Shown here: piece after piece, positions 22,201 through 53,431 of the stretch
Numbering within the stretch: position 1 is the first letter of the stretch
Layout of the letters: each line of letters begins with the position of its first letter
Source: Catajapyx aquilonaris
Taxonomy: Eukaryota
Assembly: GCA_000934665.2 (NCBI GenBank)
Contig: KZ538357.1
Coordinates: 1 to 64,000, forward strand
Length of the DNA: 64,000 nucleotides
Reading direction: 5' to 3'
Translations under genes and position numbers: made by a program
Notes under the pieces: generated by a model
What the model was told of the DNA's origin: nothing
Seen by the model: the letters and a program-made list of their open reading frames with translations, nothing else
The model's database searches: none

Positions 22201-25200
22201 GGAAAGAAGAGAAACACGAGAGGCGGAAAAGAAGGAAGAGGGCGGGGTTGGTACAAGAGCGGATCATTAGTGTGAGTATTTTTACTCAATCTGGTAAATT
22301 GGGAGAACACTGGAGTATTAATGTGCATGTAAAATTCAGCTTGTTTTACTTGCATGTTGAAATTAATGCACTTCAGGTAACTTCTTAATTGAGGTAGGTT
22401 GGAAATCATTTTGATATGGTTTCAGTGGCTATGAATAAGTACGCACAGGCTGACAGTAAGAACAGCAGTCCATCTCTTTGCAGTGGATGGGAACAAGTGC
22501 ACCAATATTTCTGGAGAGTGACAATTATTTTCTGTGTGCAAAAAAAAGTGGTCAAAATGTGAGAATAGCCTGTTAAGTTCACCAAGGACAATGGCAGTAG
22601 TAGTTCTGCTGTGTCTGAGCTAAACCATCAAGATAAATTTGCAATTCCAGTGTCAAGCAACTGTTTATTACTTATTGGTGTTATTAACCATCAATCATTT
22701 CAGATGTCGAGTTATTTCACACAAATAGGCAAGAGTTTTTAGTGTAGAAAATTCAGACACAGTTTAAATACGAGGGGGCAGTCGGAAAATAAGTTTCGCG
22801 ATGCTACCGTTTTGATGCCATGTGACGGACAGGGCAAAGAGGAGTGTGATCAGGTACATAGATCCTTCCAGTACTTTATAGGACGGGTAGACGCTGCGTT
22901 GCAGCTTATGCAGCCATTGAACAAGACTGAGTGGCAAGCCCAGCATGCCCGTCCATATGCCTCCAGGAAAAGTCATGGCGGACAGCATTGGTCACATGGA
23001 CCTTGGCGGAAGTGAGGGGCAGATGTTCGCTACCAGTGGTCGACATTCAACATACAACATTCGTTGCCAGCTAGTGGAGTGTATGGTCCGGAAATGTAAT
23101 GTCTGAGAAAATAGTGCAGTGATTTGGTGCCAGCAATTTTGGAATAAACTCGCGACCGTGAAGGACAACCAGAGGCCCAGACTACCGGCCACAGAAATTA
23201 CCAACAGTGTCCTAACTTGTGCCTTAGTCCATGTGACCAGCACTGTCTGGCATGACTTTTCGTGGCAGCATTTGGGGGGGCATGTTTGGCTCGCCACTTG
23301 GTCTCATCCGACAACTGCCGTGCCTGTGCATAAGCTGCAGAAGGCACCTACCCATCCTATAAAGTGCCAGGAGGATCGATGCACCTCCTCATGCTCGTCT
23401 TTTTCCTGCCTGTCGCATGGCGTCAAAACTGTATCGTGAGATTTAATTTCTGACTGCCCCTCCTATGTCACTTTATTTTTGGATGATATTGTAACACTTG
23501 AAAATTTTTGTATCCAAATTAAAAATCCATTGTACTTTGGGGATTTTACAGAGTGCAATGTTTTTCAACACACTCATTAATACTGGGCTAACAATGAGTA
23601 ATCCTGCAGGAGAAGTTTTACTTGTTACGTACCCTAAAGAGTGTTCTGAATATACTGCTAAAAATATTTAAGAACTAAATTATCCGCATATGAAGTGTTG
23701 CATTTATTTGTCATTTCAGCCAAGGCGTGAGCAGGACAAGGAAGACCTAGAGAGGTACAGGGAAATTAAGGAGAAGGTAAAGAAGCGGGTGGAGCAGAGC
23801 CGCCGAGGAAGACGTGAAGGTGAACCTGTAGTAGGATGGGAAGAAGAAGCTGATGAGGCCAAGGAAGAGGAGGAAACTGAAACTAAGGAAGAGGAGGACA
23901 CCAAGAAGAAGGAGGAAGAAGAGGAGGAGGAGGAGCAGGAGCCACCCCCACCACCAAAGAAACCTAAGAGGAAGGAGGAACAGAAAGAAAAGCGCGAGAG
24001 TAAGCGTGAGAACAAACGTGAGAGTAAACGTGATAGTAAACGCCATCCATCATCACGCAAAAAAGAGAAGCTCAAGAGTGAGCGCAAGAAAGATAGCAAG
24101 AAGGAGAGCAAGCTGAAGGAGGTCAAATCAAAGGAGAAAACTACATCCTCCTCGACCTCCTCTCATGGCAGCAACTCCAAATTGGAGAAGCCAACTACTG
24201 CACCAGCTGACACATCAAGTGACTCAGCACGGCGTATCAAGGATGCCTTCAGAGTGAAGATGGCTGGCTGGATAGTGCAGTGCCTCAACCCTTACAGGAA
24301 GCAGGATTGCAAAGCAGGGAGGATAACAAGTACTGAAGACTTCAAGCACCTTGCCAGGAAGGTATGTCAAATTCTTACAAGTATTTCCCAGCAGCAACAT
24401 CTTTGTTGTAGGATTCAGTCTCTCTGTCAATTTGTCCTAATCATCAAGAAGTATGAATTCACAATTTCTTGCTGTCAAACATATCTTTACCACAATTTGA
24501 GTAATACTCACCATACCGTACCCTCCTCCTTTTCCTGCATAAAAGGGCTGTTTGTGCCATCTCTGGAAGGGAGTCTCCAGCTCACCTTCGACATGTGTCC
24601 AACCAAGTCAATAAAAGTCCTGGTGACCCCCACCAAAATATTTGTCTTGGGCTCCATTCTTAGTGCTATTATCACTACTGTCAGCACAATATTAGGTGTT
24701 GAGACAATATTGTTTGTGTAGGTTAACAGGCACATGTATCGACTCTGATGGATCTTCAAGGGACGTACCATATTGATTTACAATATTTTTTTTTGCACAA
24801 ATACAGGGCCCTTACATGTCAGCATATAGGCACACATTATTGACGGAATCTTCCTGGAGCCAAATGCACTGACGCCACAGGAGTGGCAGCCTCTCCAAGC
24901 TCTACAGGAACCATGTTTTGGAGGTGCAGCACACCCACTTCCAGACAACTGTTTGCAGTTCAACGTTGCACTTGAAATGGCCTTGGCGAAGGGTTGTTTT
25001 TTTTCACGTTTTAGGACGCGAAGGGCATCATCCTCATCAACTGGCTGGAACAAGGCACTACCATCAACAGCCCTTAGTATGTGGCGACCAACAGTAGTGT
25101 GCTGTGTGCTATCCAGAAAAGGGGCCAAGGAATGAGTAAGAGGTATGCTCTTGCTTCATGGCAACTCGTGCCCCCACACATGCCAAGATACGATGGCTGC

Positions 25201-26166
25201 CATTCCCGAGTTTGGGTTCCATCATCCTCCACATCTGCCATACTCCTTCGAACTGCCCTGCAGAGACTTTCACCTGTTCAAAGCCATGAAAAAAAACCCT
25301 TCACCAACACCATTTTGAGGACTTATGTTGAACTGCAAGTTGTGCCACACCTCTCAAAACATAGTTCCTGGACGGTCCGCCACACCCATGGTGCCAATGC
25401 ATTTGGCTTCTGGAGGATTCTATTGATGATGTGTGCCTATCTGCTGTCCTGTAAGAGCCCTGTATTTGTGGTTTAAAAAAAAGTAACTTAAATCAATCAG
25501 GTGTGGCCCTTGTATATTGGCCAGGGAAGCTGCATGAGGTGCCCACCAACAGCCCTTTTATGCAGCACAACACTACCATCTGATGGTCGAACACAACAAA
25601 AGTAACTTGAGAAAGTATCTCATCTCATACTCCACGTACATGAAAGCAATGGAGCAATATTTTTAAAGTACAATGAAACCTGTACTGAAAATATTTTTGT
25701 AACGTGTGACAGAAATGCATAGAAAATCTGACAGACTCTAGTAAGAGTTTGTGCATGGAGACATTTCTCCTCTATCCAGGTTCCCTTAAGACAGAAGTCA
25801 CTGCACTGCAATGTGTAGGTCTACTTACAGAGAAAAATTAGCTGCATAACTTTTGACCCAGTTCATTGCATTGCATATTCCCAGATGGAAATATTTTTGT
25901 CGTGGCTTTGTACGTAACATGACGATGCAAGTGTTTCTTATAAGAAAGATATGACATGCACTGTGATTCAATTTCGTCTTAATTTTCAGTTAACCCACTT
26001 TGTGATGCTGAAAGAGCTGAAACACTGCCAAAGAATTGAGGACCTGGAATGCAATGACAGCGTGAAACACAAAGCAAGAGACTTTATCCGAAAGTACATG
26101 ACAAAGTTTGGTGGAAAATATCAGAGGTCACCGGAGCGAGATGAAGTAAAGGATGAAGACTGCTAA
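1266..26166 (+). CDS. SETD2: Histone-lysine N-methyltransferase Set2/SETD2 (H3K36), spliced, 15 coding exons, 2126 aa
   Basis: Phase-consistent exons: 1266-2767, 5109-5726, 10325-10444, 13306-13434, 13512-13713, 13794-13891, 14382-14862, 15774-16126, 16917-17641, 17925-17979, 19692-19802, 20895-21786, 21996-22271, 23720-24361, 25990-26166 (6381 nt). AWS ([33 protein letters not shown]), SET ([57 protein letters not shown]), post-SET ([13 protein letters not shown]), WW ([22 protein letters not shown]) and C-terminal SRI ([45 protein letters not shown]). In-frame TAA at 1257 precedes the ATG. Confidence 0.95.
2247..2378 (+). repeat. Coding 60-bp (20-aa) tandem repeat in the Set2 N-terminal exon
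   Basis: [20 protein letters not shown] / [20 protein letters not shown] / EPAP. Confidence 0.85.
3885..4413. mobile_element. MITE with CCTCCTGAGACC termini and ATAT-like flanks (piggyBac-like)
   Basis: ATAT|CCTCCTGAGACCC at 3885 and GGTCTCAGGAAG|AAAT at 4413; a second right end GGTCTCAGGAGG|GTAT at 5058-5069. Confidence 0.55.
4663..4961. mobile_element. MITE with perfect ~30-bp TIRs
   Basis: TAGGTGAATTCGTTTATGGCTGAGTGTAGCA .. TGCTACACTCAGCCATAAACGAATTCACCTA; internal repeats of the CATTCGTTTAT and GTGTAGC motifs. Confidence 0.85.
5935..6140 (-). mobile_element. tRNA-derived SINE copy (reverse)
   Basis: Reverse-complement similarity to 6476-6690 over about 200 bp, including a B-box-like GATTCGATCC and (TGCAC)n tail. 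Confidence 0.6.
6476..6690 (+). mobile_element. tRNA-derived SINE copy
   Basis: A-box-like TGGTGCTGCGG and B-box GGTTCGATCCC followed by a non-tRNA body shared with 5935-6140. Confidence 0.65.
7288..7620. mobile_element. Tc1-type foldback MITE (CAGTG ends, TA flank)
   Basis: About 140-bp near-perfect inverted arms CAGTGCTGGACATATTAGCC..GGCTAATATGTCCAGCACTG|TA. Confidence 0.9.
7940..8120 (-). mobile_element. tRNA-derived SINE of a type common in hemimetabolous insects
   Basis: Minus strand has A box TGGTGGAATGG and B box GGTTCGAGTCC, then body GGTTTTCTGTGGTTTCCC..CCAGGAGAATTCCGGGATAG..AGGCCACAGCCGCTTC. Confidence 0.8.
9173..9960. mobile_element. Tc1/mariner foldback MITE (TA-CAGGRTG ends) carrying a nested insertion
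   Basis: TA|CAGGATGGATCAGAAGTC..GACTTCTGATCCACCCTG|TA with long inverted arms. Confidence 0.85.
9625..9845. mobile_element. hAT-type MITE nested in the previous element
   Basis: TIRs CAGGGCCGG / CTGGCCCTG; 8-bp TSD CACTGAGG (9617-9624) / CATTGAGG (9846-9853). Confidence 0.8.
11112..12023 (+). mobile_element. Degenerate, internally deleted mariner transposon
   Basis: TIR-like ends (GGTTCAAATACGAC..GTTCATATTTGAACC); transposase remnants [31 protein letters not shown] and [13 protein letters not shown]. Confidence 0.85.
12205..12364. mobile_element. Short pogo/Tigger-like MITE
   Basis: TACTGTAGTCTCCAGATA..TATCTGGAGTCAACTGTA with internal GTTATAACCGAG-like repeats; related end at 27625-27654. 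Confidence 0.55.
18905..19305 (+). mobile_element. Mariner 3' fragment
   Basis: [41 protein letters not shown] (mariner C-terminus) and right end TTTGATTTACCCTCGTA. Confidence 0.8.
20014..20507. repeat. 138-bp direct duplication overlapping the left end of a TA-CAGGG MITE
   Basis: 20014-20114 is repeated at 20152-20252; TACAGGGAGCATGCTATTGACCTCCGAAGG at 20099 is inverted at 20477-20506. Confidence 0.7.
22769..23465. mobile_element. Mariner-type non-autonomous element
   Basis: TACGAGGGGGCAGTCGGAAAATAA..TTAATTTCTGACTGCCCCTCCTA termini. Confidence 0.7.
24755..25514 (+). mobile_element. Second copy of the palindromic mariner-derived element seen at 12-782
   Basis: Shares GACGGAATCTTCCTGGAGCCAAATGCAC..GAACCATGTTTTGGAGGTGC and the inverted right arm; [16 protein letters not shown] remnant. 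Confidence 0.8.
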
Positions 26167-29075: not shown

Positions 29076-32000
29076 ATGGAGTCGGTTAGCTTTGGGTTGC
29101 TTCTGGCTGCTGTCATCGCGGTAAGTTCAGATGTGCTAACTTTGACCCTTTTTGCGTACTCATTTAGGTGCCATTTTCGGTCGTAATTTTTTTATGAAGG
29201 GATTGTAAAACCTGGCCTTGCGATTTTTATAGTCGAGGGTGGTGTTGCTCCACAACGTGTGATTATTTACACTGTCTCGAGTGATTTTTGCTCGATTTGA
29301 ATTCTATGGCTGGTCTTGCACTATTTGTGACACACATTGTTAACGGAAAAACTACTTAATTGTTCACGCCCTGTTTACTAATCCATGTGCAGTAACGCTA
29401 CAATGTGTCATCCGCTTCTTCAGCAGAATACCTATTGAGAATCCGGGTAGGTTTTTTTCCTTACCGTACCTAAAAGCCTGACAAAAAGAGGATTAGAAAC
29501 TCTTAAAACCTCGATGAGTTTGTAGACCTACTCGAGTATCTCACGTAATCCCCACGTTTCAGCATGGTCCTTTCAAGAGGATTATTCCCCCCTCTACGAA
29601 CAAAGCAAAAGAAACCCATTGATACACTCCATTTCGGGGGACCTGAAAAGCTATACGAAAATCCCAGATTACATTNNNNNNNNNNNNNCCCTCTACTGTA
29701 CCTCATAAGAACGTAATTACATACACGCATTTTTCAGAAGTTCCAATGTAGGCCATATTTTTCTCAAACCCATGATACCATCTAGACACCTGTCATCCAC
29801 ATTTAAGTAATACCCAGCATGCCGAACAGGTCTTTTCGTGTCTCATTAGCATACGTCATGAGTTTTTACATGATGACAGCTTATTACACGTCATGTTACA
29901 CACTTTACCATGTAATTAAAGCATAGTCTTCCGGTCGCATAACCATCAGACCCGATTTGACCTAATATCTCTTGGGAGGTCCATTTTCATAACAATAGTC
30001 CAAAAAGGCGTTGCTCTCACACTGTGATATGTGAAGGTCAGATCCAACAGGAGGAAGTATGGACTGTCGGCCATATGACATCCTGAGGGTTGATGGTGGA
30101 AGGTTCCGTCCGAAGGGAGGGTCTAATAAGCATGAGCCGCCACCGAGGGTTTTTCTTTTTAAGCCCACCGCCAGAGGAAAGCGCCTATTGGGCCCGGGTC
30201 CAAACCCTAGGGGAAAAGGACTCTAATGCAATTGTAGACCAGGATGGAAAGCTAGGGGCAAAAAATTACTAGGGGGGACTAAAAGACGCGTGTAATTTGC
30301 ACCGGCTGCCGACATTTACTAAAATAGATATACCCTAGAGAGGTCATCAATCTAGGATAGGGCATGACATAACTGAGAGGGGGTGTAGTGTCAATGTAGA
30401 GATTACATGTAATTACCGGTCTAGATTAGGGAGATAAGAGAGTCTGGTTTACAACCGGATTCGCACCGATGGCGAAATAGATATAGTTTGCTTTGAGGCA
30501 CGGAAGCCGCCCCTTTTTTTAACTGGAGTAAAAAATAAGCGTCGCTTCCTGAGAGATAAAGCCAGGAGGGCATGGCTTGGGGGATCATTGAAAAGACATT
30601 ATGTAAACCACTCTGGAGTGGCAAAATGTGTTTGTTTGCCTTGCAAGCTGGCAGAACAGGATTTTTTGGGGGATGGCAATTGATGGACTTGTGTGAAAAT
30701 GTCGGCTGGCTATGATCATGTCTGGAACATGTTCGTTGAGTGGAACAACTACTAATGCGGTTTTAATTGGGTCTGGTACGCAGGTGCTTCCATGGTCGGA
30801 GCGTAATAAGGAAACGTTTTAGTTTTTTATGTTACTATCCTTTTGGTAGTAATCAAGTCTGTCCAGATAGATTTTTTCAGACATGCTTGACGGATTTGAA
30901 TTGAATAGAGTGTAAGTCAGGAGTACAGGGTGTGGCATATGTGCGGAGGAGATGATTATCCTGGAAGAAAAACCAGTTCCAGCCTTGATTATTCAGCATG
31001 TGAAACGAAACTGCCGGTGTCCTTTTCACTACTTTTTTTTTATATATCAAACCTTTAAGGCAGCTGCTTCGATGTCACGAAACGTCCTCTAGTTTGACAT
31101 GGAAAAATGGCCGGGCATCGGGGACAAGCTGAAGAGTCACTAAGGCTTTTGTTTGGCACCGACTCAACTATGCTACTTTGCATGCCCCTATCGGAATGTC
31201 GTGCATTGTCAACTAGTGCACTAGTGTGGAAATAATCGGCCGTATACATTATGTTTCAAACAAAAAAAAATGAAAAAAAGAGGGGCAGTGAACGCACGCG
31301 ATGTTTCGTGTCTTATCTCTAATAGCTATGTATTATCCAAGGAATCAGATATAAGGCGAGAAAGTACACGCTCTGGATTCACGCTATCTTGATTATCATC
31401 GGTTGTAATAATGACCTTTTTTATGGGTTTGAAGAATCAGGCTGTTTGGTTCATAATCTCCAGCGGTTTTCAGGGTGACAGTGCTTGGTGATGTCATGCC
31501 AAATAAAGCGGTAAAACTTCAAAGGATGAGTGGATGGGGAAGCCATGTTGACATAGAAGGCGTTGGTTTTTTTTTGGTTGCTTCCCCCCCTCATCCTGGT
31601 ACCAAACTCTCCGTATCCACATGGCTTCCGGAGGCCTTTTGTCGGCGTCGGAACAACAATGGGGGGGTTTTTTTTTTTCCTTTTATGCGGAATGAGCAGG
31701 TGGAGTGTTTGGGAGAACGCCCTTCCTCTAAATGGCCCTGTGCAAATGTTGGGCAATCTGCCGTTTTTATCCGGGGCTATATTTTAAGAAGATAGTCGAG
31801 ATTAATGTATAACCTTAGATAGGGCTATATAGCCATATCTGAGGCTGTATATGGCTTTAGAGTGGGGAGTAATGAGAGGAGTACCTATAAATCGCCGGGT
31901 TGACCACATGGCGTCTGTATCAAATAGGCTTTTCGGTGGAAGTTGGGTAATATTTTTATTAATCGTGTATTCTTCGCGCGAATGTAGCCGAATATGTCAA

Positions 32001-35000
32001 CGCGGTGTCTATGAAAGTTGTGGAGCAAAAAATTAATGTATGCAAGTAAAAAGAGATAGAAGAAATATTCAAAGGTAGTCATTTATCGCACCGTGAAAGA
32101 ACTGAACGCGATCTTTTACACTGATTGTTTCTATATAATACTGTAATGCCATATAAAATGGTGAAATTAGTGTTGTTCAGTTAATGGGACGATTATAAAA
32201 ATCGGGTTGATAATTGTTGGGATTTTTTCATGGTGAGAAAGAACTTTCGAAAGGTATACAATCATTAAAAATTTATTGCGGAGATTACAATGTATATGGC
32301 GCGTAATTAATGAATTGCAGTAACTAAAATGTTAGTGGCGTAATCAGTTTTCAATGACTCGACTAGCACTTCCCCATCGTATTAATTGGCCGCCCAAGGA
32401 GCTACAGTCCTAAAAGTATCTTTGTAATTTCATGACGAGTTCTACCAAAAAATTATTACTAACTCAACACAATGAACTTATAAATACGTTTTATGGTTTT
32501 TGTTTCCGTAAAATAATAGAACATCAGAGCAATGATTCATATCTCAAAATCTGACGACAAATATGTGGCATTATTTCAGGTGGCAAGAATGGAGGAAACC
32601 ACAGTCCGAGCGATTGATCTGACAGTGATCAGCACGTGCCCACCGCACCAGTACAACTTGGAGGACAGCAATAAGTGCTGCCAGAAGTGTCCTCCCGGAA
32701 CCGGAGCAGTGCAACTCTGCAGCCCCGAGTCCGACACCAAGTGCATGTCGTGTACTCCTGGGCTGACCTGGAGTCCCAACACGGACCTGGATGGATGTCG
32801 GCCGTGCTCCTCCTGTCCGGTACATTCCCACGTGGTCCTCCAGTGCAACACGACTAGAGACACCGTCTGCGAGTGTGACAGAGACCACTTCATGGAGGGC
32901 GGAGGATGTCGCTCTTGTGACCTTTGCCCCCACGGCTGGGGAGCCTCTAGGCCATGTACCCCTCAGCACAATACGGTATGCCGTATGTGCCCTCCAGGAA
33001 CATACAGCGGTGTGCTCAGCTCATCACTAGGATGCATTGTCTGTACAGTTTGCGGGAAGGACCAGCATATGCTACAGCAGTGCTCTCCCATACAGGACAC
33101 CGTCTGTCTGGGTAAGTCTCACACTGCCTGTCTCTGTTCTAGAGGCAGCCACCGGAACGGGCCCGTATAAATGGAGCTCCTGTTTGAGAAGCTCAAGGCG
33201 TGTCGACACAACTTCCAGTCAGTGGGTGACACCGCATTCCCTCCAAAAGGGCCAATTTGTTTTCCAGGCCATCAAAAGTAGGGAGCAATATGGCTAGGCC
33301 CATACTTTTGACATGCCCCACCGCACCTCTTCAGAAAAAGCTTCGTCCGTGGAAGAAGCCCCCAGGGAGGGAGCGGTCTCGGTTTCAATTGCAGCCCACC
33401 CGAAATATCCGGAGGGTTCGGAATTTGAGCTTTTACTCTAGCCACCTCTATACTTCCAAAGGCCCATGGGGAGTGGGGCAATTTGACCTTTTGGCACAAA
33501 TGTTCCGTTTTGTGTGTCCCAGACCTCGAAACAAAGGCGGCGGTTGTGTCTGGACCTGTAACAGTCGGTTGGGGGGGAGGGGGGGGGGATATCAACTAGG
33601 ACATATATATTTAGAAAAAAATCAGGGCTGTTGAATGTAGGTAGATATATGTTAATATACAGTACAGTGTTGAACATTAATCGCGTTATACTGCTGGCGA
33701 CATATCCCGACGCGGCAAACTTGCAAATCGAAGTGATAGAGTAAGAAGAGGTAGGCTTTGAATGACGTCTCCGGCTGGGGGGCAATGGAGATAAGGCTTG
33801 TCCCCAGCCAGTGACGACACCCGAGGGCTACCATTTCTTACTCGCACGGCTCGCTCTATCACTTCGATTTGCACGTCTGCCGCGACGGAAAATGTCGCTA
33901 GCAGTATGACGGAATTAATGTCCAACATTACATTCGTTTAGCCCCCACGTTTGCATCCCCCAACTGAGGGACGGTTTTGTAGGCTACCTCGTCTTTCCAA
34001 CACCTCTTGTTGTATAGTGTTGGTGGGCGGTGCGGACTTCTAGTGGAATGGAATTCCAGGGGCAAGGTAGAGGAATGGGGCAAGAGGGGGGGGGGGGCCT
34101 TAGTCTTCTTTCGTGATTAAAGCCACCCAGCCGAACACAACCATAATGGTAATGCAGACGGAGGGGTTGCTCTCCTGTTGTTGCCCTGGCCATTAAAAGA
34201 GACACCACCTGGCACCTCTGCTCCACCCACAAATGAAATGGAGCTAGCTGGGCTCCCCCTTGATTAAATCTGCCTGTTTGTAACGTTCCTCACTTAAAAG
34301 ATGGACTATAGGGGGAGGGGGAAAAAATATGGAAGGGAAAATGTCATAAAAGGTGCAGCTGGTGGATTCACCAAAATGGTGGCAACTTAGCACCTTTTGT
34401 GTGAGATCTTTCACATTTTTTTGTACCTTCTTGGCTGACCGGGCCATTTTGGGAAAAGGTGCGAATGAGACCAAGGAAGGCACGAAAAGTGGCATCTCAG
34501 AGAAGGGGAGTCGTAAAATGGAGCGGTCTATAATTATGGCGGCGGTTGTATTAGCGGTTGGGAGTGTTGCATGATGGAAATGTCCGCCATGCTGGAAGCT
34601 CTTGTGTCGTAAAATTTTTGGGGTTGCAAGCCCCACACTAAAATCATTCAAACTTCAGACCTGAAGAAAATTAAGCACCAGGATATGTCCTAAATGTTGA
34701 AAATTTTGCGTAATTGCACTGTGCCCATTCTATGATGAAATAATTTGGATCCACTTTTTCCACTGTGCACAATGGGTGGGGAGATATTTATGAATGTATA
34801 GTTAGCGTATAGCCGGTAGTTGCGTTGCTGTAAATTGAGAGCAAGGACGGCGCTATTAGAACCGAGAATCAAGCCTGACCAACACTGATTGCAGCAATTA
34901 TCCGCATGTAATTGCCTTATCATATCTACAAACGTGATTGTAAGTGTAGATACATGGAAGTTGGATTTATGGATCTATTTGTTCCGGTAAAAGTTGCTTT

Positions 35001-38000
35001 CGTATAACATGGGCAATTTAACAATATCCTGGCACAGACGCCTCTGCAATTTGGACTGTTGCATTTGCGCAAATAATACTAGAGTACAAGTATTCGTAAC
35101 CATTGGAATCGTGTGAAAGGGCCATAACCAGTAAAATATGTAGACATTCTGCACGCTTTGAATTAAGTGCTGTCCTTAGCCAACTCCGAGTCCAAAAGCA
35201 TTACAAATGGCCATTAATTTGCGGATACAGAACTACCGCGTAAAAATTGTACCCTTCCGGAGGAATTTTTAAACTGATAAAAAGCGCGTTTATGCAGCGG
35301 CACTTCTTTGATTAAGAAGAACCTGCTGGCTCATTATAATTCATGCTAAACATTTCCCAGTATGATATGTGGCATCCTACACGCATTTACCGGATAGGGG
35401 GTTCATTCAACTGCTCGGTCCGGATCACTTTGATGTCATCATTATTCCCGCACTACAGATGGACCTTACTTGGCCTCACCACAACAACACGAAAACAAAA
35501 AGGAAAACCAGTTCTACAAAAGAGGGCGTTATTTTTTCCCTCTTCTTATGATGAATTGGTTAATTAAAGTGCGACCGACCGAATTTTTTTATTGTTCTAA
35601 CATTTCTCCAGTGCTATTAGGATAATATTGAGAATCATGATAAGTCCTGATATAAAAAGTCTCGATTTTTTTTTTGATTAGTTTTCTAAACCCCTGAGGA
35701 TATAAAGTGACAAATGGAAACAGCTTTAGACGCAGCCAAGCGGTGAAAATGACGTAGTTTTTACGACGCATCCAAATTAAGAAGCTGCCGTTGTGTATCT
35801 CTCCATCGCATCTCCTTTATCTCTGCCGTGGATTATTTTATAACTGCTGCACTTAAAAAGCGAAAGGGTTAAAAAAAGTGTGAAAAGGGCCTCCCCCCAT
35901 CATGGTATTTATTTCCTAAGAGGTATCAAATTTCACACGGGATGGAGTACAGCTGTAAACCACAGCAGCCATTTTTATATAGCCCACACACGCAGATTGC
36001 TTTTATTCTTAGTCTTTCATATCGTGTGGGCCATTATTCCACAAATTGCAAATGAAAATGGCCCTTTTTCCTCATTGGTGCTGTCAGCTGAGAGGCAAAT
36101 TACATGAGGCGAGACAAATAGATGGCCGTTGGGCCCGGTGCTTGCTGGCATCCCCACAAAGGACGGATCTGACCTTCCCGTGGTCGGCCGCGAATCCCCT
36201 CGAGATCCGACTCGCCTCGGAGAGAATAAAGGACAAAGACGCCGTAAATTCAGTCGGTGGACAAGAGAGATTTCTCTATGCTGACACGCCGTAAGATTTA
36301 AGATGCATATCTGGACCCGGGGGTGGATGCCACTTGTTCTGCCCTTTTAGCTTTGCCTTAAGTAATACAGGGGTCAGCCGGCATCGGGTTTATTCCAGTA
36401 CCAGTAGCACTAATGACGACATTTATATTACATATCGACATGTACTGTATGTAAAAATGAGAGTGTCCAGGATGGGAGCCAGTCACGGCCAGCATCGCAC
36501 GGCTGCAGCCAATCACGGCCAGTATCGCGCCGCTGCAGCCAATCACGGCTAGTATCGCGCCGCTGCAGCCAATCACGGCCAGTATCGCGCCGCTGCATCC
36601 AATCATTGGTGCCATCCACCCGGACAGACAGCCGGACACTCTCCTTTATCAAGTCCTTTATACTTATAGAGATTCATGCAGGTAATTGAATGAGAATGGT
36701 ATGTACTAAGGATTGTATAATGTACCTGCCGTCATCACTTGCACCATCTCTCTATTGTAAGCCAGTGTGTCCGACAGGATAAATTAAAAGTGAGGCCCAT
36801 CCAGTTTGGCCTAGTCGGCATCTGGTAATGAGTACGGATACCCCGTAGCCCGTACCGTATCATTAGGGGCTGCGCCTCCTTCCAGGGTACCCATTTGGGG
36901 GTCTCAACCCGGGGATTTCTAGCATCCCAACCAACCGGAGGGAATACTTCTTTTCCGCTATTACCTGCCCTTCCCAGCTTGATGATAATGAGGGGGTATT
37001 AGCTGCTATTAGGGTCCGGAGTGAGGAACTTGGTCCGGCCAATTACGGGGTGTCGTTGCAGACGCCATCTTGCTTGCCTATATATGCTAATTGAGTTTTT
37101 TTGTGCGACTCAAGAAGTGGCTTTCAAAGAGAACTTCATTTGTAGTTAATTTTTTTAAGACGGTTGCCTGACTTAAAGGTGCTCGGTTGGAAAAGTAGAG
37201 TTAGCTGGCTAATGAACTGCGGTGGTTCATGAATAGGATTAGAAAATAGGAGTTGTTATTAGCGTGTTATTGAAGGCCAATGACTTGGCTGGGTGTCAGT
37301 TACGCTGTTTGTAGAGTGAGTGATTTGCCATACCAGTTGAGGGTCGGTTATGTCAAATAAAATTCTGATGGAAATCTTCGTTAATAACGGATTATTATGT
37401 ATAAATATCCTTCATTAAGGTTCCTAAATGCGAGTTATTCTTCACGATGTTTGCATTCGATTCAACATTCGTTTACCTATACAAAATCACTGGACCGTTA
37501 ATCTGAATTCAGTGCTTTCATTTTGACTGCATAATTACAGCTTCAAATTCATCCAACTTCCGAACTTTCATTAGAGGCTTCGGGTCTCATCACGCATCAA
37601 TAGCTCCATTCAACCCCAGGGGAAAACGGTGAAAGTGAGAAAAACACCACCAAGGGATTAAATGTACCTCTATATTCACCCTGTGTTGAATCGCCCAGAA
37701 AAATGGATTAGCCCGCATATTTTATGTAACTTACATAATTTTACCATTTAATGACTTCTGGTGACTGGACACTAATCGTTAAAATTACATATTATTCCCG
37801 GATAAGAATATTTCGCTTACTAACAATTGAGTTCAATAACAATATTGCATTATGCAAATTTTTAAATTCCTGTAGTATGGCAAACCGTTCAGCAGGAGAT
37901 GCCTGATCATATCGTTATCTTACATTAGTTTTTTTTGCGCAAAACATTGAAAACAAAATACATTGCGTGAGAAAAGACCTGGGTCACTGGTGTACTCAAC

Positions 38001-41000
38001 TGATGGACCATAGAGCCAAAAGCATCAATTTGTTATTGGCCTCCTCCCTCGAAACCGGCATCTCACCTTTGCAATCCAACCGGTTGCACACATATACTTC
38101 ACGCATCGCCGAGTATGACCTCCCAAAAGTACCACCATTACTATGGACCCTAGGACTATTAAAGTGGCGACTTCACACGCCCAGCACTCACGCAACACTT
38201 TTTGAAGCCCGTACACTAACCAGCTCTAAAATCCATGTTAACAATATACAAGTTTGAGGTAAGACGACGTGAAGGGGTGCGATTAATTGAAAAACAGCCT
38301 GAGGAACATCGCGCCCTCCCTAGACATGTTTGGGACATGTTCGAGTCTCACCCCATCCATGCTTATTAGGCCCCAAATGATAGGGTGGGATGGTTCGGTA
38401 GGTGTTGCCTTTCCCACTCTATTCACGCACGTTGCAGGTGATGTGAAGCTGGCTTGGCTGGCTTGGCTGTTGTATGCATGACAATGGGGAAATTAATTAC
38501 AGATTTACTGATTCCAGATAAGGATATGGGTCGGCTGCACCGGAAGACCACAACGAAGCCGCTCTCCAGCGTTGTTACAGTGGAAGATGCTTCCTACTCA
38601 GAGCAAGGAATCATACCTGTCTACTGTGTCATACTTGGGGCTGTTGTCATTGGTAAGGAACATCAGCAACTGGAGCATGTCCTCACATTACATCAATTAC
38701 AGTGGACAATACCTGTTGAGTTAGCTCGTAGTTACTTAGTCATTATCCATTGTAGTTTTGTATACGCGTGGGGAGTCATATAAATCAACCAACATAATGC
38801 GTGGTTTGCACGAATGATTTGACCAAGTTCCCATTGCAGGCCTGCTGGCTTATGTGGTGATGAAACAATGGCGTCTTCGCAACCAGGGTCCGAAGTTGAG
38901 TGTTGGTGCCATCGCGGTTCCCCTAACGGACCCTGAAGCTTCGCCATACTTTGCAAAGCGTCCTCCGGATGCTGATTCGGGAATTCTGCTGATGCCAGAG
39001 TGTAGAGAAATGAAGCCAGGTAAGAAATACCTCCTGTTTTTTTTGTACCTTTCTTTTTCATGGGCATGACCCCGGCCAGTGGTGGCCCTTTTTTTGTGTA
39101 GCACCATAGTGTCAGCTGGTAACTGTTTCGCCTAATAAGACGTGGCGGGATGAAGATGAGGTTCACGCGAGAAACAGGTTTTAGGACCTTAATTACCGCA
39201 CCTGGAGACGCGAAATTTTCTGCTCTCCCACGTTATAAATTAGTAGAATTATGAAGAAAGATAGCTGAGGCGGACATTAATTTCTGATTATTCTGTCATT
39301 ATTTTTTGGGAGGTTGCAAGGCTATATGTGCGTCAATGTTCGGGTACGGAGAAAAAGATTTATGTCTGAGTTGTAATTACCAAAAATCGAGCTTCACTTT
39401 CCATTAGTAGTGTTACACTAATTAGTATTAATTACATTTTCAGCGGTCGCTTTACTTTACGACCGTAAGGCCTTGAAATATATACTCCTAAAATCGCATT
39501 AAAATTAGTGAAAAATTACACAGGGTGATTCGCTTGCCATCATTATTGTCGCTTCTATTTTAACTTGTGCAGTGTACCATCTTGTGAATATTTAACACAA
39601 TGCGGCATAATAAATTACTTCAATTCTAGAGCATCATTCAAGCTCATTAACATCCTGTAGATTTCTGGATAAAGAATAATGATCCACGGTACAAGAAATA
39701 ACAAGTTCTCAATGTACAAGTACTCAAGACGCATTAGGCACTCACTTATGTGAAATTATGAGCTGTTAACTGGCACTGCAAGTAGTCTACAGGACACCTA
39801 ACTTATGAGTATTAAATTTAGGACATCATGCAGGTACAACGTCTCTCCCACATATTTTACCTCTCAAAATCACTTTGGAAGCCATCACTCTGAGATAAGA
39901 CTTTATCAGCATTTAATGAACGTAACTTCCCCCTGAGGACTTATCAGGCGAGAGAGCCCTGGATCAAACAGTCTGCACACACCGTGAGAAAGCTCGGCAA
40001 ATTCACAAAGAAGACAATGAGCACCGGCTTATTATGTCGGATGGTATTTCACACGGTCCCCCCCATCTCGACCACCCCAACTCTCATGTACCCTCTCAGA
40101 CTACCTTCCATCTTTAATCCGGGACCCGATTTGTCACACTGTGTGGAAGTGTAGATTGCTCTGATAAAACGAAAAATATACTGGATGGCAAAAAATTTAA
40201 CGCAAAAGTAAAACAGGATGGTAAAAAAACATTGTAAGATTTCCGATTCTTTTTGCATATGGTAATACCTTTCAGATTTACTCCGTGTTACTCATTATTA
40301 CTTATTACCTTTAATTGTACCTTCAACATGAACTTTGACCGGAGTTCAGCGTTCCATTGAATTAATTTCAACCCCCCAGAGGACATATGGGGAGTGGTTT
40401 AAATTTCACTGGGGCCATCATATTTTTTTTTTCTACGTTTTTTTTTTTCTCTCTTTCTATCCTGCATCTCGTCCTTGTGGCCGATTTCACGGCGTGGCTG
40501 GGGAAGATCTGAAAGGCGCGACCGGTTCGAAGAGCGTGGAAAATCGCAGGAGATACACCCAAAAAATGCCTGAAGAGGTTACACCGCCTTTCCCACAGGC
40601 AGGGTGACAAATCGGACCAGCCGAGTTATTTAGTAACGGATTCCAAGATGTTCATGTCACGCATATATATTTTTCCTACCAAAAAGAAAGTTGATTCGTG
40701 ATTTTGTGAACAGCATTTTTAGTGCAATCTGGGTTTCGCTTGATGCACTTTTCCCACGATGCAAATGCTGTACACAGTTGGATTTTTAAAAATAGCGTGT
40801 AAAACAAAAAAAAACTGTTCATTCTTGGATATTTTTAATGATGGTTTTACTACATATGAAGTGCTTGTGAACCGCGCACATTAACCTGAAACGTTCTTGA
40901 AATTCCAGTCCTGTCTAGAAATTGTCCGTGAAATTAGCGCCTTGGAAGACAAGGTACGGCCAGATTGGAGGTCCACCTTTTTTTTGCCATTCCAAAAGAT

Positions 41001-41718
41001 ATGGACGGCTAGCTAAATCGGTAATTTCGTTGCTGCCCCACTATCACTTTTTGCTACCACCTTCCATCCGGAAAGGACAGTAAAAAAAAACGGTTTTCTC
41101 AGGATGGCACGACCGTCACGAATTTAATTGTGGTTATTGTAGAAAGAGGCATGCTGTATTATTCCAGGCACAATTTCTTTGAAAATGACCAAATAGAGGG
41201 TGCGGCCAAATTGAGGCATTAGTGACTGCATCATTTTTCATTTTACGAATGTTGTCAGGTGTATGAAGTTTACTGTCCTCTGATTAACTGACCTCTAATT
41301 TCTTTATGTTGCAGTCACAATGGATTCGAGGCTTAGAGAAGTTTGTAGCAGTAAAAGGCGAGAAATGGAATCACTTCTCAATGTTCGAAGAGAGCACAAA
41401 GACTGGAAAGCCCTTGCCAAAGAGCTAGGTAAGTTGTGTTTTACTTTAACAAGATCTAGTGTTGTGTGCACCATTTTACAGTCTGTTTTCAATGCAGGTT
41501 ACACATCGCGTCGAATAGCAGCGTTTGAACATCGGGCAGTGGAAAAGCACAGTATACCTATACGACACCTATTCGCCGATTGGTCCAAAGGGGAAGTCGG
41601 TACGGTGCACAACCTGGTACGAGCATTGAAGAACATCGGGAGATATGACGTGATTCGAGTTCTGTTCCCACCGTGCGAGTGGGCAGATCACCATAGGCAC
41701 CAAGGAGAAATAGTGTAG
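29076..41718 (+). CDS. NGFR: p75 neurotrophin receptor-like TNF receptor (TNFRSF16/NGFR family), 6 coding exons, 413 aa
   Basis: Exons 29076-29120 (signal peptide MESVSFGLLLAAVIA), 32580-33111 (four 6-Cys TNFR CRDs), 38503-38652 and 38840-39019 (TM IIPVYCVILGAVVIGLLAYVVMKQW; juxtamembrane DSGI), 41315-41428 and 41498-41718 (death domain DWKALAKELGY..LFADWSK..TVHNLVRALKNIGRYDVIRVL). All GT-AG and in phase, 1242 nt. Confidence 0.9.
29676..29688. other. Assembly gap
   Basis: 13 N; further Ns sit in G/C homopolymers near 7867, 9797 and 58053-58055. Confidence 0.95.
33665..33930. mobile_element. Foldback MITE with CAGTGTTG-type ends
   Basis: About 75-bp inverted arms TGTTGAACATTAAT..GCAAATCGAAGTGATAGAG / CTCTATCACTTCGATTTGCA..ATTAATGTCCAACA. 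Confidence 0.75.
36477..36605. repeat. 30-bp minisatellite (about 4.3 copies) inside a small inverted-repeat-bounded, Helentron/HINE-like element
   Basis: Unit AGCCAATCACGGCCAGTATCGCGCCGCTGC, bracketed by GAGAGTGTCC (about 36459) and GGACACTCTC (about 36634). Confidence 0.85.

Positions 41719-45395: not shown

Positions 45396-45452
<57 letters not shown>
45396..45452. repeat. (TTA)n microsatellite
   Basis: 19 consecutive TTA units. Confidence 0.95.
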
Positions 45453-48282: not shown

Positions 48283-51200
48283 CTATTCTGCCCCTTCGGA
48301 TTTTTGGATGTACTTTTTGGTTTGTTTCATGATCTTCTGTGTCTCTTTTCCAGTAGGCGTATCTTCAGTGGGTGTTGATTCTGCCAGCTGCAAGCAGTTC
48401 ATGGCTTCCTCCAAGTTTCCTAGTTTGACTGAAATGAAACGGTGTGGTGTATTGTTAATGACCATTCATGTTGGTGAGGGAGTATGCATGACTTACTGTT
48501 CGCCTGTGTCCTGAGAACCAGCGCATTGAATTTCCAGGTACCACCACTCTTTTCCAGTCCGTCTGCAGTGTTGGTGCACATCTCCGCGTAGTAGTTTGCT
48601 TCATCGAGCTTGTCCATTTCTGTCAATCAGAAAATATCAGAATATTATAGCACCCCTTATGTCACATACTGTACGTAATGAGAATTTCCTTCGACTATCC
48701 TGAATATAATCTAAATACCTAGCCTAGTCTATGTGCAAATAGTCACATCTGTGCTGCCAATTCTGACAGGCATTAAAACACTGTAATTGAGTTAGAGGGA
48801 ACAGCTACATAATTTTTATCAGTGTACTTTCATATATCTCCCCACCTGCCTATAGCCTAATTATATCGCACTATGAAAATAAGTCCTACCGAGGTAGCAT
48901 CGTCCGATTTCGTGGCAGAGCCAGACCCTTTCCATCGGATCCGTAGTGAGTGGCAGCCTGGCCTCCCAGACCTGGACAGCGTTGTTGTACTGGCCTGCCT
49001 TGACGTAGGCCTTCCCCAGCCAGTCCCTGGCCCTTTGCCTGATCTCGTCCGACTCCAGTTCGTCAGCATAGTTCAACTCCTTCAGGAAAGCATTGCAGGC
49101 TGCCTCGCCCTTGTTCATCCCCAATAGGCACTGTCCCCTGACGTTGACGATGAAAGCCACCACCTCCTTCTTCGCCGGGCTCTCCTTCACTCCTACCATT
49201 GCCTTCAAAGCGCGGTTGCACACCAATAGACATTCATCTGGCGTCTTGCTTATCAAAGCTGATGGGCAGGGGGGGTGGGGGTGTAAGAGGACCAGTTCAT
49301 CACATTATACGTGTAGCATGTGATACATTTAAAAAATATACCATATTGACAATGTATACGTACAGTATTCGACATCCTCCTTTCCTCTCTTCAATACTTT
49401 TCTTGCCAAGTCCATCATCATCCTTTGCTTCTCATCTGCGGTTTTGCGTTCGTCAGACTCCGCACGCTCCCTCACCTGTTATACCAGTAAAGGTGATGTT
49501 TATAAATTCACACTTCGGGATATCAGTAGGCTATGCGTACTATGTTACCTTAGCGCTAATATTTTTTTCCACGGCGCGGCAATACAAAGGCTTATGCTGC
49601 CTCCAGAAGTCCTCTCGCGTGTTGAGGTAATTGATGGCATCTCTGACTGTGACTTGCAGACTCGTATTTGTCTTTCCGCCGCTAACCACCAGCTCTGTAA
49701 GAGGACACGAAGTTTAATAAAAACCGACTTTGATTCGAATACACTCCGAAGCCTTTCAAATGCACTGTGACTCTTGTCGAATATTACCTTTGCGGTGCTC
49801 GAGACGTTCTAGGAAGACCTTGTCGTGGTGCAAGGGTCCTAGGAGCTCCTTGCTGATGCGCCTTCCATCGACGGGCTTTCTCTTCTTGCGGGCCATCTCG
49901 ATGGGGGAAGGTCCGGTCGTGGTTGTCTTCGCCTGAGCAGCGCCACCCTTGCGGGTCACTTTGGCCGCCTGCAGTTGTTGAAGCTCGCGTTCATCCATTT
50001 CCCTCATTAGCTTTTCCAATCCTTGAAGGTCGGTGCAGAGTCTGGTCGCACCTTTGTCTGAAATGCACATCGGAAGTGTTTGGGAGACAATTACGGTAAT
50101 TGACAAGGTGACTTTAGCGACTGTGGGAAAGGCCCCTGTTTCAATTCTGTCAGGATACTTACGGCACACTGAATTTTGTATGGCTTCCTGCGCTTTTTGC
50201 ACTCCAACACGAAAGTCAGCTATGTCTGGACGGATGCGGTATCCTCGGTGGAAGTGTACCAGAGCATGCTCGAACATGCTCATTTGGTAGAGGGTCTCCG
50301 CCTTCTGGAGGATCCCCATGATGTTCACGGAGTCCTCTCGAAGGGCTGACTCCACATCCTTCAAGGCACTATGGACGTCTCCCAGCTGTAGGTAGCACTT
50401 GCTACGTGCTACCAAGGCCCTGGTGTTGCCGGGTTCCAACTCCAGAGCCTAAATCGAGATGAGACAGTTTGGATTTAGAATAATTGCGAATGTCTTCATG
50501 AGTATCTTATGCTGCCATTATTCTTAAGAATAGTTGGAAAGTCCCGTGCCAAGTTGTGTTTTCAGTTGATGAATGGGAAAGTTATTAGGGATATAAATTA
50601 CGGCCAAATCACGTGACGGATATTCTCGCGGTTTCCTGAAATATGGCCGCGGAACCTATTACCGTTAATGAGAACCGCTGGAAGAAACTCCGTCGGAGCA
50701 GTTCTTCTGTAGCGTAGATATACTAGTGCAGATATACATGAAATCGAGCAGGAGTGAGTGTTTCTAAACTGCAGTGTGCTAGGGAACATACATATACAAG
50801 CGAGATGGAAGAAACCATCACCTTGTTGAGAGTAGACAAACCCAAATCCAACAAATCCCGCTTTATTTCCCTATCAGCTTGCAGGACAAACACATCCGAA
50901 TCGAACTGGTCCGGTATCTCGAACAGCATCTTCCTCTCTTGCTTCTTCTTGACGCTGAGGTCTTGCTTGATGTCCTTACTGCCCAGGTTGACAGCAGCGG
51001 CCCTGTCCTTGTCCGTGTACAGCTCTTCCCTGACCCGACGTATCCGCCTGGACCCTCTTCGACTGGCACTGTGGATCCTGGACGGTGGTCCGCTCTTTGA
51101 AGGCGAAGATGACCTGGCCGAACTAATGGAGGTGGACTTGGACATTGGCGGAGGGCCTGGAAGACGTCTCTTCTCCTGGACTTTCTTCACGATTTCGCGG

Positions 51201-53431
51201 TGGTCCAGGACCAGGCTCACACCTCGGCGCTCCTTTGGTCGGCCTCGCTGTGTGGCAGAAAGGGCAGGCTTCTTTTGTTCTGGGCGCTGACCCTTTTGAT
51301 CGCTGTCCTCGTCTGAGCATGGTTGGTCGGATTTGCGGACGTACACCTGGAGGGCTTCGGTTTCTTTTGTGGTACTTAGAAGCTGTTGGACAGTTTGGCT
51401 TAGATTTGCCACGCTTCGACGGGGTGCAGCTTGGCCTTCCATCCTAGGGAAAAGTTAAGAGAATAGAATGATAATAGTGACTGTACTGCACTTCTTTTAG
51501 AAGCTTCAGTTACACCAGTTTACGTTTGACATTCCTGTACCACTTATTGTGTCACTAATTGCGGAGGTTTTATAGTACAGTATAATGCATCATTTTCTTT
51601 ATGTTTTATGGTGAATAAGAGTTAAACTAAACAAGAAATATTATCCCAAGAAATTACATGAAACCATCTTTACTATGTAGTAATGCCGCACAACATGATT
51701 TCTTGATTTGCTACATTCGGTTATATTAAATATACAGTAGAACCCCGATTATCCGACCTCTGATTATCCGACCGTCCCTCTCCGGCAATAAATCTATGTT
51801 TTCTCATGAAATACTGTAAAGTTCTACGCATTCGTTTATTTTGCATACAGAGTACAGTAGAGTGTGTGTGTGAAAGAAAAAATATTTCTTAGAAAACCAT
51901 AATATTTACGTCAAAAAAACATTTTTATATGTTTTTGTTGCGCTTTATGAAAGTTTTTTTACTCCTCTGATATTATCCGACCTTTTCGGTTATCCGATAA
52001 TGCCACAGTCCTGTGGGTGACGGATAATCGGGGTTCTACTGTTCTTACAAGGGACCTTTCCGGAGTGATAATAACGGATCCAAATGAAACTGAACATGCT
52101 AATAAAGGACAATATATGACAACCAAAAATGAAGTAATTTCGTGCGGAGGTCCATATTTGCAAAAGTTACGGCGTGTTAAAATGCCAAAAATAGCACATT
52201 TTCATACACAATGGGATTACGTTAAGGACCACGTATAATGACATTGAAATATCTAATCAGATTTATTGTACCAAATTCACATTATTTAACTGTCATACAG
52301 TACAATGTTTATGAAGAAATACATTTAGGTGATTCTGTATTTAATAATCCATTCATTAAAAAGTGAACTGTACGCAGTATGTGTAAATATATTGTATGCC
52401 AGTGAAATAATGTGAATTTGGTACAATAAAACTGATTACATACTTCAATGTCATTATATGCAGTCCCTAACGTAATCCCATTGTGTATGAAAATGTGCTA
52501 TTTTTGTCACTTTAATACGTCATAACTTTTGCAAATATGGGCCTCAGCAAGAAATTACTTAATTTTTGGTTATCATATACTGTCCTCTATAGTATGTTCA
52601 GTTTCATCTGGATCTGATATTATCACCCAGGAAAGGTCCCTTTAGTATTTCCTCATCTATAGTGTGATAAAGACTGCGTGATAACCATCAACCAAGATAC
52701 ACGCAATAAACTTAAAAAATGAAACTAAAATAAGGGCAAATATTTTGTGCACAACTTGACTTACTTCTCAACAGGATAAAATTAGTTTTACCTTGTGACG
52801 TATACATCTCAATATCATTATGGCAATAAATTATGACAATAAAACTTAACTAGTAATGCTTTTTAGAGACTGCTGTGCTGAAAGATTAGGCTCTTTACGG
52901 GCCAAGTATAAAAGCAAATTAACTGTATAGTTTTTGTTTTACATCTTGAGCTAGTCTAGCTGCAGTACTTGCTCCATAATGAATAGAATCTGATTTAGAA
53001 AAATATGTTGTGAAATTAAAAAGTGATAATTTTTGTTTGAGAATTGATAAGTTGAAGAAATTAAAGTTTCCATTGCAATAATATGATAATAATTTTTTAA
53101 AAAGTGAGTACCTCTTTCATACGTCTGTGTATATAAAGAAAGGAGAAGTGTGCTCATACCTGGACCTGCTCCTGGAAGTCCTTCCACTTCCTTTCTTGAA
53201 CACCACGCCCTTTTGACTGAGGGCCGGAGTCAGCACCTTGTGATCATCATCCATCACTCTTTCACGCCTTCGAAGGGGCCTGCTTCCTTTGTTCTCTTCA
53301 AGGTCACTCTTGGCAGGGCCCGTCACCGAGCTTTTCTCCTGGAGCTGTTGGGGCCGCCTCCACAGCTCCAGAGGTGTTGTTTGGTCATGTTCCGAAAAGA
53401 GCACTATGGCCTCAACTACCACCGTGGCCAT
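48283..53431 (-). CDS. ODAD4: Outer dynein arm docking complex subunit 4 / TPR protein 25, isoform A (long N-terminus), about 781 aa
   Basis: Minus-strand exons 53431-53160, 51443-50822, 50448-50163, 50057-49788, 49694-49549, 49475-49364, 49258-48890, 48619-48497, 48428-48283, phase consistent. TTC25 signatures ALVARSKCYLQLGD..GILQKAETLYQMSMFEHALVHFHRGYRIRP..FRVGVQKAQEAI, YLNTREDFWRQHKPLY and WLCHEIGRCYL. The first exon (53160-53431) is less certain; ATG 51442 is an alternative start. Confidence 0.88.
51735..52041. mobile_element. pogo/Tigger-like MITE
   Basis: TA|CAGTAGAACCCCGATTATCCG..CGGATAATCGGGGTTCTACTG with internal TTATCCGA repeats. Confidence 0.85.
52049..52643. mobile_element. Long foldback MITE with AAGGGAC ends (Kolobok-like)
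   Basis: About 250-bp inverted arms AAGGGACCTTTCC..GGAAAGGTCCCTTT with degenerate TTAA-like flanks. Confidence 0.8.

Follow-up and report, generated by a model that had tools for sequence, protein, structure and literature searches.

A candidate invertebrate pro-orthologue of NGFR and NRADD beside SETD2 in a genome that is most likely from an arthropod

Is the receptor gene on the + strand at 29076–41718 of the 64-kb stretch of contig KZ538357.1 analysed here (the window) a genuine member of the p75 neurotrophin receptor (p75NTR) family, and in what kind of animal does it lie? The initial annotation had read it as a complete, vertebrate-style p75NTR in an apparent insect or arthropod genome. 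Our analysis makes it very probable that what lies here is the invertebrate pro-orthologue of NGFR/TNFRSF16 and NRADD/NRH1, intact and single-copy, in the genome of an ecdysozoan that is most likely an arthropod. The degree of surprise attached to the find was overstated, because p75-type receptors have already been published or annotated in Daphnia, chelicerates, crustaceans and insects.

Architecture of the receptor gene

Six-frame translation and base-level reading placed six exons at the locus (Table 1), with GT-AG at every intron, and joining them gives an open coding sequence of 1227 nucleotides (nt) for a product of 408 amino acids (aa) that contains 28 cysteines. Twenty-four of these lie in four cysteine-rich domains (CRDs) and include a CC pair, one (C229) lies in the transmembrane (TM) segment and three are cytoplasmic. 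The product has two hydrophobic segments, at aa 1–20 (the signal peptide) and aa 222–248; the TM segment proper spans aa 224–245, IIPVYCVILGAVVIGLLAYVVM, and is followed by KQW, and an intron splits the helix at VVIG/LLAY (here and below a slash marks the position of an intron). A short run of N in intron 1, at about 29.6–29.7 kb of the window, represents a small assembly gap (the whole window has 18 N), and intron 2 contains a 30-bp tandem repeat (36477–36605; 4.3 copies, 92% match) with spurious long open reading frames on both strands. The gene is single-copy within the window.

Pfam recognised four TNFR_c6 stretches in exon 2 (E 1.2e-32) and a Death domain (E 4.9e-9, 36.6 bits against a cut-off of 22.6). 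By Pfam and by reading of the sequence, the signal peptide, the four CRDs with their 24 cysteines and CC pair, the TM segment, the DSGI motif, the death domain and the C-terminal -GEIV were all found where the annotation had put them. The ectodomain was modelled with AlphaFold2 as a confident four-CRD TNFR fold, with a predicted local distance difference test score (pLDDT) of 93.1, and for this part of the protein an alignment of 19 sequences has 23 invariant columns, 20 of which are cysteines. When the death-domain exons were searched against solved structures, all four matches were p75NTR death domains and nothing else was matched (best E 4.3e-5). A profile was made from alignment A2, which combines the translated window exons with Lingula TNFRSF16 and in which two poorly conserved linker pieces are scattered (alignments A1 and A3, likewise of Lingula with window exon pieces, were dropped because fragments were misplaced in them). 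Against solved structures this profile ranked the p75NTR ectodomain first (4.3e-24, with OPG at 1.1e-19), and it also matched the TM segment and death domain of NRADD (6hj7, 7.2e-17) and the TM peptide of p75NTR (2mic, 1.5e-7).

The TM helix is of the p75 type and carries both the conserved cysteine and an AxxxG motif (A234–G238), as can be seen in the alignment: IIPVYCVILGAVVIGLLAYVVMKQW. Of 14 aligned relatives, 12 retain the cysteine and two, cyprinid nradd and the millipede protein, do not. Over the TM segment plus KQW, the window sequence is identical to the database protein P0108 at 20/25 positions, to Lingula and to a gecko TNFRSF16-like protein at 19/25 each, to an NGFR-type vertebrate protein (P0159) at 17/25, to Limulus at 12/24 and to the millipede at 9/25. 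By this count it is nearer to Lingula and the vertebrate forms than to those of other arthropods, and it is an unusually conservative helix for an arthropod. On the cytoplasmic side the juxtamembrane sequence DADSGIL (aa 281–287) holds a DSG[IV] motif; a D/N-(S/G)-G is present at this site in 12 of the 14 relatives, in 11 of them as DSG, and is missing from Limulus and the millipede. These features support the annotation's view of a complete p75NTR-family receptor that has the ancestral module of four CRDs, TM cysteine with AxxxG, DSGI and death domain.

The product length needs correction. An alternative in-frame acceptor for exon 3 at 38503, 15 nt upstream, adds DLLIP and gives the 413 aa of the annotation. 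In the alignment, Priapulus, Limulus and P0108 read C-[LIA]-DKD-[ML] at the exon 2/3 junction with no insert, and the DKDM with which the stalk starts is found also in Priapulus and P0108, Limulus having DKDL. Because the homologues have no DLLIP-type insert at this junction, the 408-aa product is the better-supported model. Flanking residues are conserved, ungapped, in homologues at four of the five junctions (VCL/DKDM, VIG/LLAY, KP/VT and ELG/YT, the last two kept in Lingula). The junction within the signal peptide, between exons 1 and 2, is the sole one without a homologue to support it, and exon 1 is backed by its signal-peptide character and its strong donor.

It is improbable that the locus is not expressed as modelled, whether as a recent pseudogene or through a wrong first exon or some wrong junctions. 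Such a reading could draw on the 45-nt exon 1, which lies 3.4 kb upstream and is the part that lacks homologue support, on the alternative acceptor of exon 3 and on the N run in intron 1. Against it, every one of the six exons has an open frame between consensus GT-AG borders, none of the 24 CRD cysteines has been lost, the conserved family residues of the TM segment and death domain are retained, and both the conserved residues on either side of four junctions and the high pLDDT of the ectodomain model speak for an intact gene.

Position within the p75 family

In an index search with exon 2, two of 100 candidates reached E ≤ 1e-10, namely TNFRSF16 of Lingula anatina and a TNFRSF16-like protein of the mite Dinothrombium; the profile gave 29 out of 8000 scored candidates, which were TNFRSF16 or TNFRSF16-like proteins of molluscs and vertebrates and NRADD-like proteins of birds. 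When 1.84 billion representatives were searched exhaustively with HMMER, 1570 proteins matched at E ≤ 0.001, 72 of them at E ≤ 1e-30. Of the 150 best representatives, 30 were checked for a name (the other 120 may include insect or crustacean members), and nearly all of the 20 that were named are TNFRSF16, p75 or NGFR. The named sources include Limulus/Tachypleus, Priapulus, Tubulanus, Saccoglossus ("p75 neurotrophin receptor-like"), several echinoderms and molluscs and Capitella, and also a millipede (annotated hypothetical protein), amphioxus, Callorhinchus and a cyprinid ("neurotrophin receptor associated death domain"). One further database match, P0219, has a p75 ectodomain and TM segment fused to a GFP domain and is evidently a laboratory construct.

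In a blastp comparison of the 408-aa product with the fetched matches, the top places were taken by P0108–P0110 (300–323 bits, 41–50% identity), followed by a horseshoe-crab cluster (40%), Priapulus (38.5%, aligned to the very C-terminus) and Patella (41%). The best named relatives are of TNFRSF16 type, and Lingula TNFRSF16 is the first of them (43% over 354 aa, E 8e-85); vertebrate family members are 30–35% identical to the product. Two look-ups in the Atlas yielded TNFR clusters made up mainly of chordate sequences and no others. Taken by region, identity in the CRDs is 49% to Lingula, 47% to Limulus and 33% to P0159, and in the death domain it is 64% to P0108 (58/90), 44% to Lingula and 34% to P0159.

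Three trees agree with one another, two of them quick (42 and 49 rows) and the third a careful one of 33 rows and 441 columns, for which support is given as ultrafast bootstrap/Shimodaira–Hasegawa-like approximate likelihood ratio test (SH-aLRT). In the careful tree, which was rooted on three death-domain TNFRs without a p75 TM segment, the p75 family forms a clade (100/99) and the window protein lies inside it, so that the p75 membership given in the annotation holds. The window protein groups with P0108 and P0110 (93/67); this group is joined by Limulus, the mite, the millipede and two further rows (94/84), and the resulting arthropod-containing group by Priapulus (95/93). Molluscs (96/91) and deuterostomes (96/96) form clades of their own, and Lingula, Capitella and the nemertean stand without resolution at the base of the family. 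The vertebrates (100/99) fall into three paralogue clades, namely the NGFR type, represented by P0159 and so called from its match to the p75NTR ectodomain (2.1e-46), the NRH1/nradd type and a third clade of P0171 and P0183. The two members of the third clade have a p75-type TM segment and a death domain, and are grouped at 100/100.

The gene tree largely follows the animal tree. On this sequence evidence the gene was inherited vertically and is very probably the single pro-orthologue of all vertebrate members of the family, NGFR and NRADD/NRH1 included, and its source would be an ecdysozoan, most likely an arthropod; the term "arthropod-type" is to be preferred to "insect".

A vertebrate nradd/NRH1 locus was the first idea, suggested by the SETD2 gene next to the receptor (see below), and it was ruled out by the database matches and the trees. 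We regard it as extremely unlikely that the window is from a vertebrate, or from a taxon in which p75 is well described, and that the gene is NRH1/nradd beside setd2. Besides SETD2, it was the vertebrate-like TM segment, with its 19/25 identity to the gecko protein, that had first suggested a vertebrate locus. The protein lies, however, outside both the deuterostome and the vertebrate clades and inside the ecdysozoan one, its identity to vertebrate family members is only 30–35%, and all four CRDs are on one exon, as in Daphnia, whereas vertebrates are described as splitting the CRDs over two exons (PMC2772990).

As to other invertebrate TNFRs, the gene product is the same receptor type as the "PITA" of one preprint. 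Receptors of the Wengen and Grindelwald kind have neither a death domain nor a p75-type TM segment, and are excluded by the presence of both here. The invertebrate EDAR/XEDAR/TROY ("EXT") receptors are set apart by their description, which gives them about three CRDs and no death domain (bioRxiv 10.1101/2021.12.26.474206), against four CRDs and a death domain in the window gene.

Several points weigh against this placement. The ectodomain taken alone is not p75-specific: among the 50 TNFR sequences that exon 2 matched in solved structures at E ≤ 0.001, OPG (9.2e-18) stands slightly above p75NTR (6.9e-17), and a fold search with the ectodomain model matched CD40, TNFR2, DcR3, DR6 and RANK equally, with p75NTR at rank 8. 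Because the ectodomain fits all four-CRD TNFRs, the family assignment rests on the TM segment, the juxtamembrane motif and the death domain. The Pfam TNFR_16_TM match (E 2.8e-4) scores 21.5 bits, under its cut-off of 25.6, because the helix is split by the intron and only the half in exon 3 was scanned (model positions 6–20 of 38). In the careful tree several rows are on long branches, and the three outgroup TNFRs themselves match p75NTR best; the outgroup is made up without named vertebrate TNFRs of another family, and it is by the TM segment, the death domain and the position of the gene that the window protein is separated from the other TNFR families. No protein in the searched collections is more than 50% identical to the 408-aa product over its whole length, and the five junctions rest on homology and splice consensus. 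Finally, an S/T-x-V PDZ-binding tail is a defining feature of the vertebrate p75 family. Vertebrate rows of the alignment end in -S-A-V, -S-V-V or -T-A-I, whereas the window protein ends in -GEIV and Lingula in -AEIV, so that the hydrophobic last residue is kept in a different motif class.

Genomic neighbourhood

Besides the receptor gene, the 64-kb window contains only SETD2, ODAD4 and a transposase fragment. The upstream neighbour is a SETD2/Set2-type gene, recognised from its SET, WW and SRI exons (Table 1). Its last coding exon ends at 26166, which is at most 2.9 kb before the ATG of the p75 gene at 29076, and the two genes are on the same strand. The transposase fragment is of mariner type (11328–11621, + strand; Pfam Transposase_1, E 9e-9) and lies inside the SETD2 region, presumably in an intron.

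Table 1. Features of the receptor gene and its neighbours. Positions are those of the window; slashes mark intron positions.
Feature	Position	Strand	Content and evidence
Exon 1	29076–29120	+	Start codon and most of signal peptide, MESVSFGLLLAAVIA; donor GCG/GTAAGT
Exon 2	32580–33111	+	End of signal peptide and all four TNFR CRDs
CRD1–4 (in exon 2)	32637–33107	+	aa 35–191; 24 Cys; one NxT sequon, N105
Exon 3	38518–38652	+	Stalk (about 32 aa) and N-terminal half of TM, IIPVYCVILGAVVI, with C229
Exon 4	38840–39019	+	C-terminal half of TM, G/LLAYVVMKQW, and juxtamembrane region with DADSGIL
Exon 5	41315–41428	+	Linker and first part of death domain, to ...LAKELG
Exon 6	41498–41718	+	Remainder of death domain and tail ...HHRHQGEIV; stop TAG 41716–41718
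SETD2/Set2-type gene (upstream)	1260–26166	+	SET, WW and SRI exons
SETD2, SET exon	13486–13761	+	Pfam SET, 2.5e-11
SETD2, WW	in 20851–21807	+	Pfam WW, 7.6e-6
SETD2, SRI first half	in 23672–24721	+	Pfam SRI, 2.5e-10
SETD2, SRI second half	25918–26166	+	Positions 33–77, E 3.9e-13
ODAD4/TTC25 (downstream)	48861–51454	-	Database matches; tblastn of four ODAD4 proteins
ODAD4, N-terminal stretch	51028–50816	-	Matched by the psyllid protein alone among the four ODAD4 queries

The downstream neighbour, on the opposite strand, is ODAD4/TTC25 (outer dynein arm docking complex subunit 4). One 230-aa exon of this gene is matched by 105 database proteins at E ≤ 1e-5, and those that are named are overwhelmingly ODAD4 or TTC25. 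Near-full cover of the exon is given only by hemipteran, cockroach and tunicate proteins and three others (32–39% identity), the best full-length matches being to hemipteran and cockroach proteins (36–38%). A tree of ODAD4 gives the window a very long branch that does not fall among the 11 insects sampled; the length of this branch is inflated by a rough gene model that includes non-coding residues. Of the "insect/arthropod" genome in the annotation, the broader half is borne out, since the receptor tree makes the source ecdysozoan and probably arthropod (95/93 and 94/84), and the narrower half is not, the ODAD4 tree, with its inflated branch, placing it outside those insects. A perfect (TTA)19 microsatellite (45396–45452) lies between the p75 gene and ODAD4, and Rfam and tRNA scans of the window gave no matches.

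Human 3p and 17q are paralogous regions. The window gene lies beside SETD2, the position that NRADD/NRH1 occupies in vertebrates, the vertebrate side of this comparison being drawn from papers only: the gene order in axolotl is given as map2k3-nradd-setd2 (PMC6473073), and in human the locus 3p21.31 is listed as holding NRADDP along with SETD2, KIF9 and KLHL18 (PMC4848543). Human ODAD4 is placed at 17q21.2 (PMC12468610) and human NGFR at 17q21.33 (PMC9965628). The vertebrate orthologues of both flanking genes are thus linked to one or other p75 paralogue, which is the pattern expected from the duplication of a SETD2-p75-ODAD4 block.

We think it fairly probable that SETD2-p75-ODAD4 is an ancient bilaterian block, kept in this arthropod as immediate neighbours, and that NRADD and NGFR are ohnologues of a single invertebrate gene. 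Of the copies left by the two genome duplications in vertebrates, one would have stayed beside SETD2 (NRADD/NRH1) and the other on the ODAD4 arm (NGFR). As a rough estimate and not a computed value, the chance that one of some 20 near neighbours of NGFR or NRADD would adjoin the gene, out of about 15,000 genes, is a few in a thousand. A search of the literature on NRADD with SETD2 returned nothing on invertebrates, and no paper combining NRADD, synteny and NGFR was found. If true, the block would provide a positional proof of orthology that is independent of the TNFR tree, which is hard to resolve, and would be a rare case of microsynteny kept between arthropods and vertebrates. Confirmation of the SETD2 adjacency in other invertebrates would support p75-like receptors as true NGFR/NRADD orthologues, and NGFR and NRADD as a pair that arose by genome duplication.

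Signalling and comparison with known receptors

The way in which the receptor might work can be sketched from vertebrate p75NTR, as covered in a review (PMC9965628), and from general knowledge. The CRDs would bind a dimeric secreted ligand. The receptor may exist as a dimer that is held together by C229 and packed through A234–G238, and ligand binding would then rearrange the two death domains and recruit adaptors. The short stalk and the TM segment might allow shedding of the ectodomain by an ADAM protease and subsequent release of the intracellular domain by gamma-secretase, and a PDZ protein may bind at the -EIV end. With its conservative TM segment the gene is well suited to a test of whether regulated intramembrane cleavage and a TM dimer linked by a disulphide are ancestral properties.

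A neurotrophin-type ligand is quite possible, although we would not rely on it; a TNF-type ligand is a lesser possibility, and the rest of the probability goes to both types or to neither. It is likewise conceivable, if doubtful, that the gene is p75 by descent and does another job, serving as a death-domain TNF receptor for an arthropod Eiger-type ligand and not as a neurotrophin receptor. The CRD exon is, after all, about equally near to p75NTR and to OPG, which binds a TNF ligand, and CD40, TNFR2, DcR3, DR6 and RANK match the ectodomain fold at the level of p75NTR. The preprint on PITA presents this type as ancestral to most TNF receptors and gives Hymenoptera only PITA, with no Wengen or Grindelwald (10.1101/2021.12.26.474206), from which it would follow that PITA, as the sole type, is their only TNF receptor. 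Among solved TNFRs, however, only p75/NRADD has a TM segment, juxtamembrane DSG and death domain of this kind, and p75NTR of Daphnia is reported to be accompanied by a neurotrophin and Trk (PMC2772990). Neurotrophin and Eiger-type ligands are, moreover, not mutually exclusive.

Comparable receptors are on record from several invertebrate phyla. Wilson (2009) described Dappu-p75NTR of Daphnia pulex, in which one exon encodes all three CRDs and which has a death domain and a TM segment like that of deuterostomes, and p75NTR also in Capitella and Lottia (PMC2772990); Lauri et al. (2016) reported p75 in annelids. According to Cumming et al. (2021), PITA is found in Arthropoda (house dust mite, horseshoe crab), Brachiopoda, Mollusca, Annelida and Cnidaria, and in all three arthropod classes sampled there, namely chelicerates, crustaceans and insects including Hymenoptera, with Diptera given as lacking it (bioRxiv 10.1101/2021.12.26.474206). 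TNFRSF16-like proteins are also present in public annotations of horseshoe crabs and a mite.

The closest sequences, P0108–P0110 (JGI/Logan, transcript-sized), are nearest to the window protein in every tree and have the Pfam domains TNFR_c6, TNFR_16_TM and Death, and they differ from it in their length of 480–508 aa and in a long insert between CRD2 and CRD3. The TNFRSF16/PITA proteins of Lingula, Patella, Limulus/Tachypleus and Priapulus share the architecture over the whole length at 38–43% identity over at least 354 aa, and Lingula in addition shares the DSG motif, the -EIV end and the TM helix with KQW (19/25), although none of the invertebrate proteins passes 50% whole-length identity to the window gene product. 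The receptor of Daphnia resembles the window gene in being from an arthropod, in its deuterostome-like TM segment and death domain and in having all CRDs on one exon (PMC2772990); it differs in that three CRDs are described, against four here, in a comparison made with the text of the paper and not by alignment. A single CRD exon would leave no short isoform to be made by CRD-exon skipping, and exon 2 of the window gene, at 532 nt, is not a multiple of three.

Vertebrate NGFR has, like the window gene, six exons and five introns (PMC9965628). It also shares the four CRDs, the TM cysteine and AxxxG, DSGI and the death domain, and the NGFR-type P0159 aligns over the whole length. In contrast to NGFR, the window protein has a much shorter stalk, a CRD1 without an exon of its own and a tail in -EIV where NGFR has -S-A/V-V, and it is at most a putative neurotrophin receptor. 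Vertebrate NRADD/NRH1 belongs to the same family clade and has SETD2 as its neighbour, and its non-mammalian forms keep the CRDs; unlike the window gene, it is a paralogue specific to vertebrates. In mammals, NRADD no longer has the CRDs. Wengen and Grindelwald of Drosophila are, like the window protein, arthropod members of the TNF receptor superfamily, and they have been reported as divergent descendants of PITA (10.1101/2021.12.26.474206); Wengen is described as having no death domain (PMC2772990), whereas the window gene has four CRDs, a p75-type TM segment and a death domain.

The accepted view that components of neurotrophin-type signalling predate the protostome–deuterostome split is unchanged by these results. 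With this locus, the few full-length p75 receptors known from arthropods gain a complete and conservative example with four CRDs, in a lineage without a close relative in the collections searched. Its novelty is modest, and it differs from the published case of Daphnia in its four CRDs and in a notably conservative TM segment.

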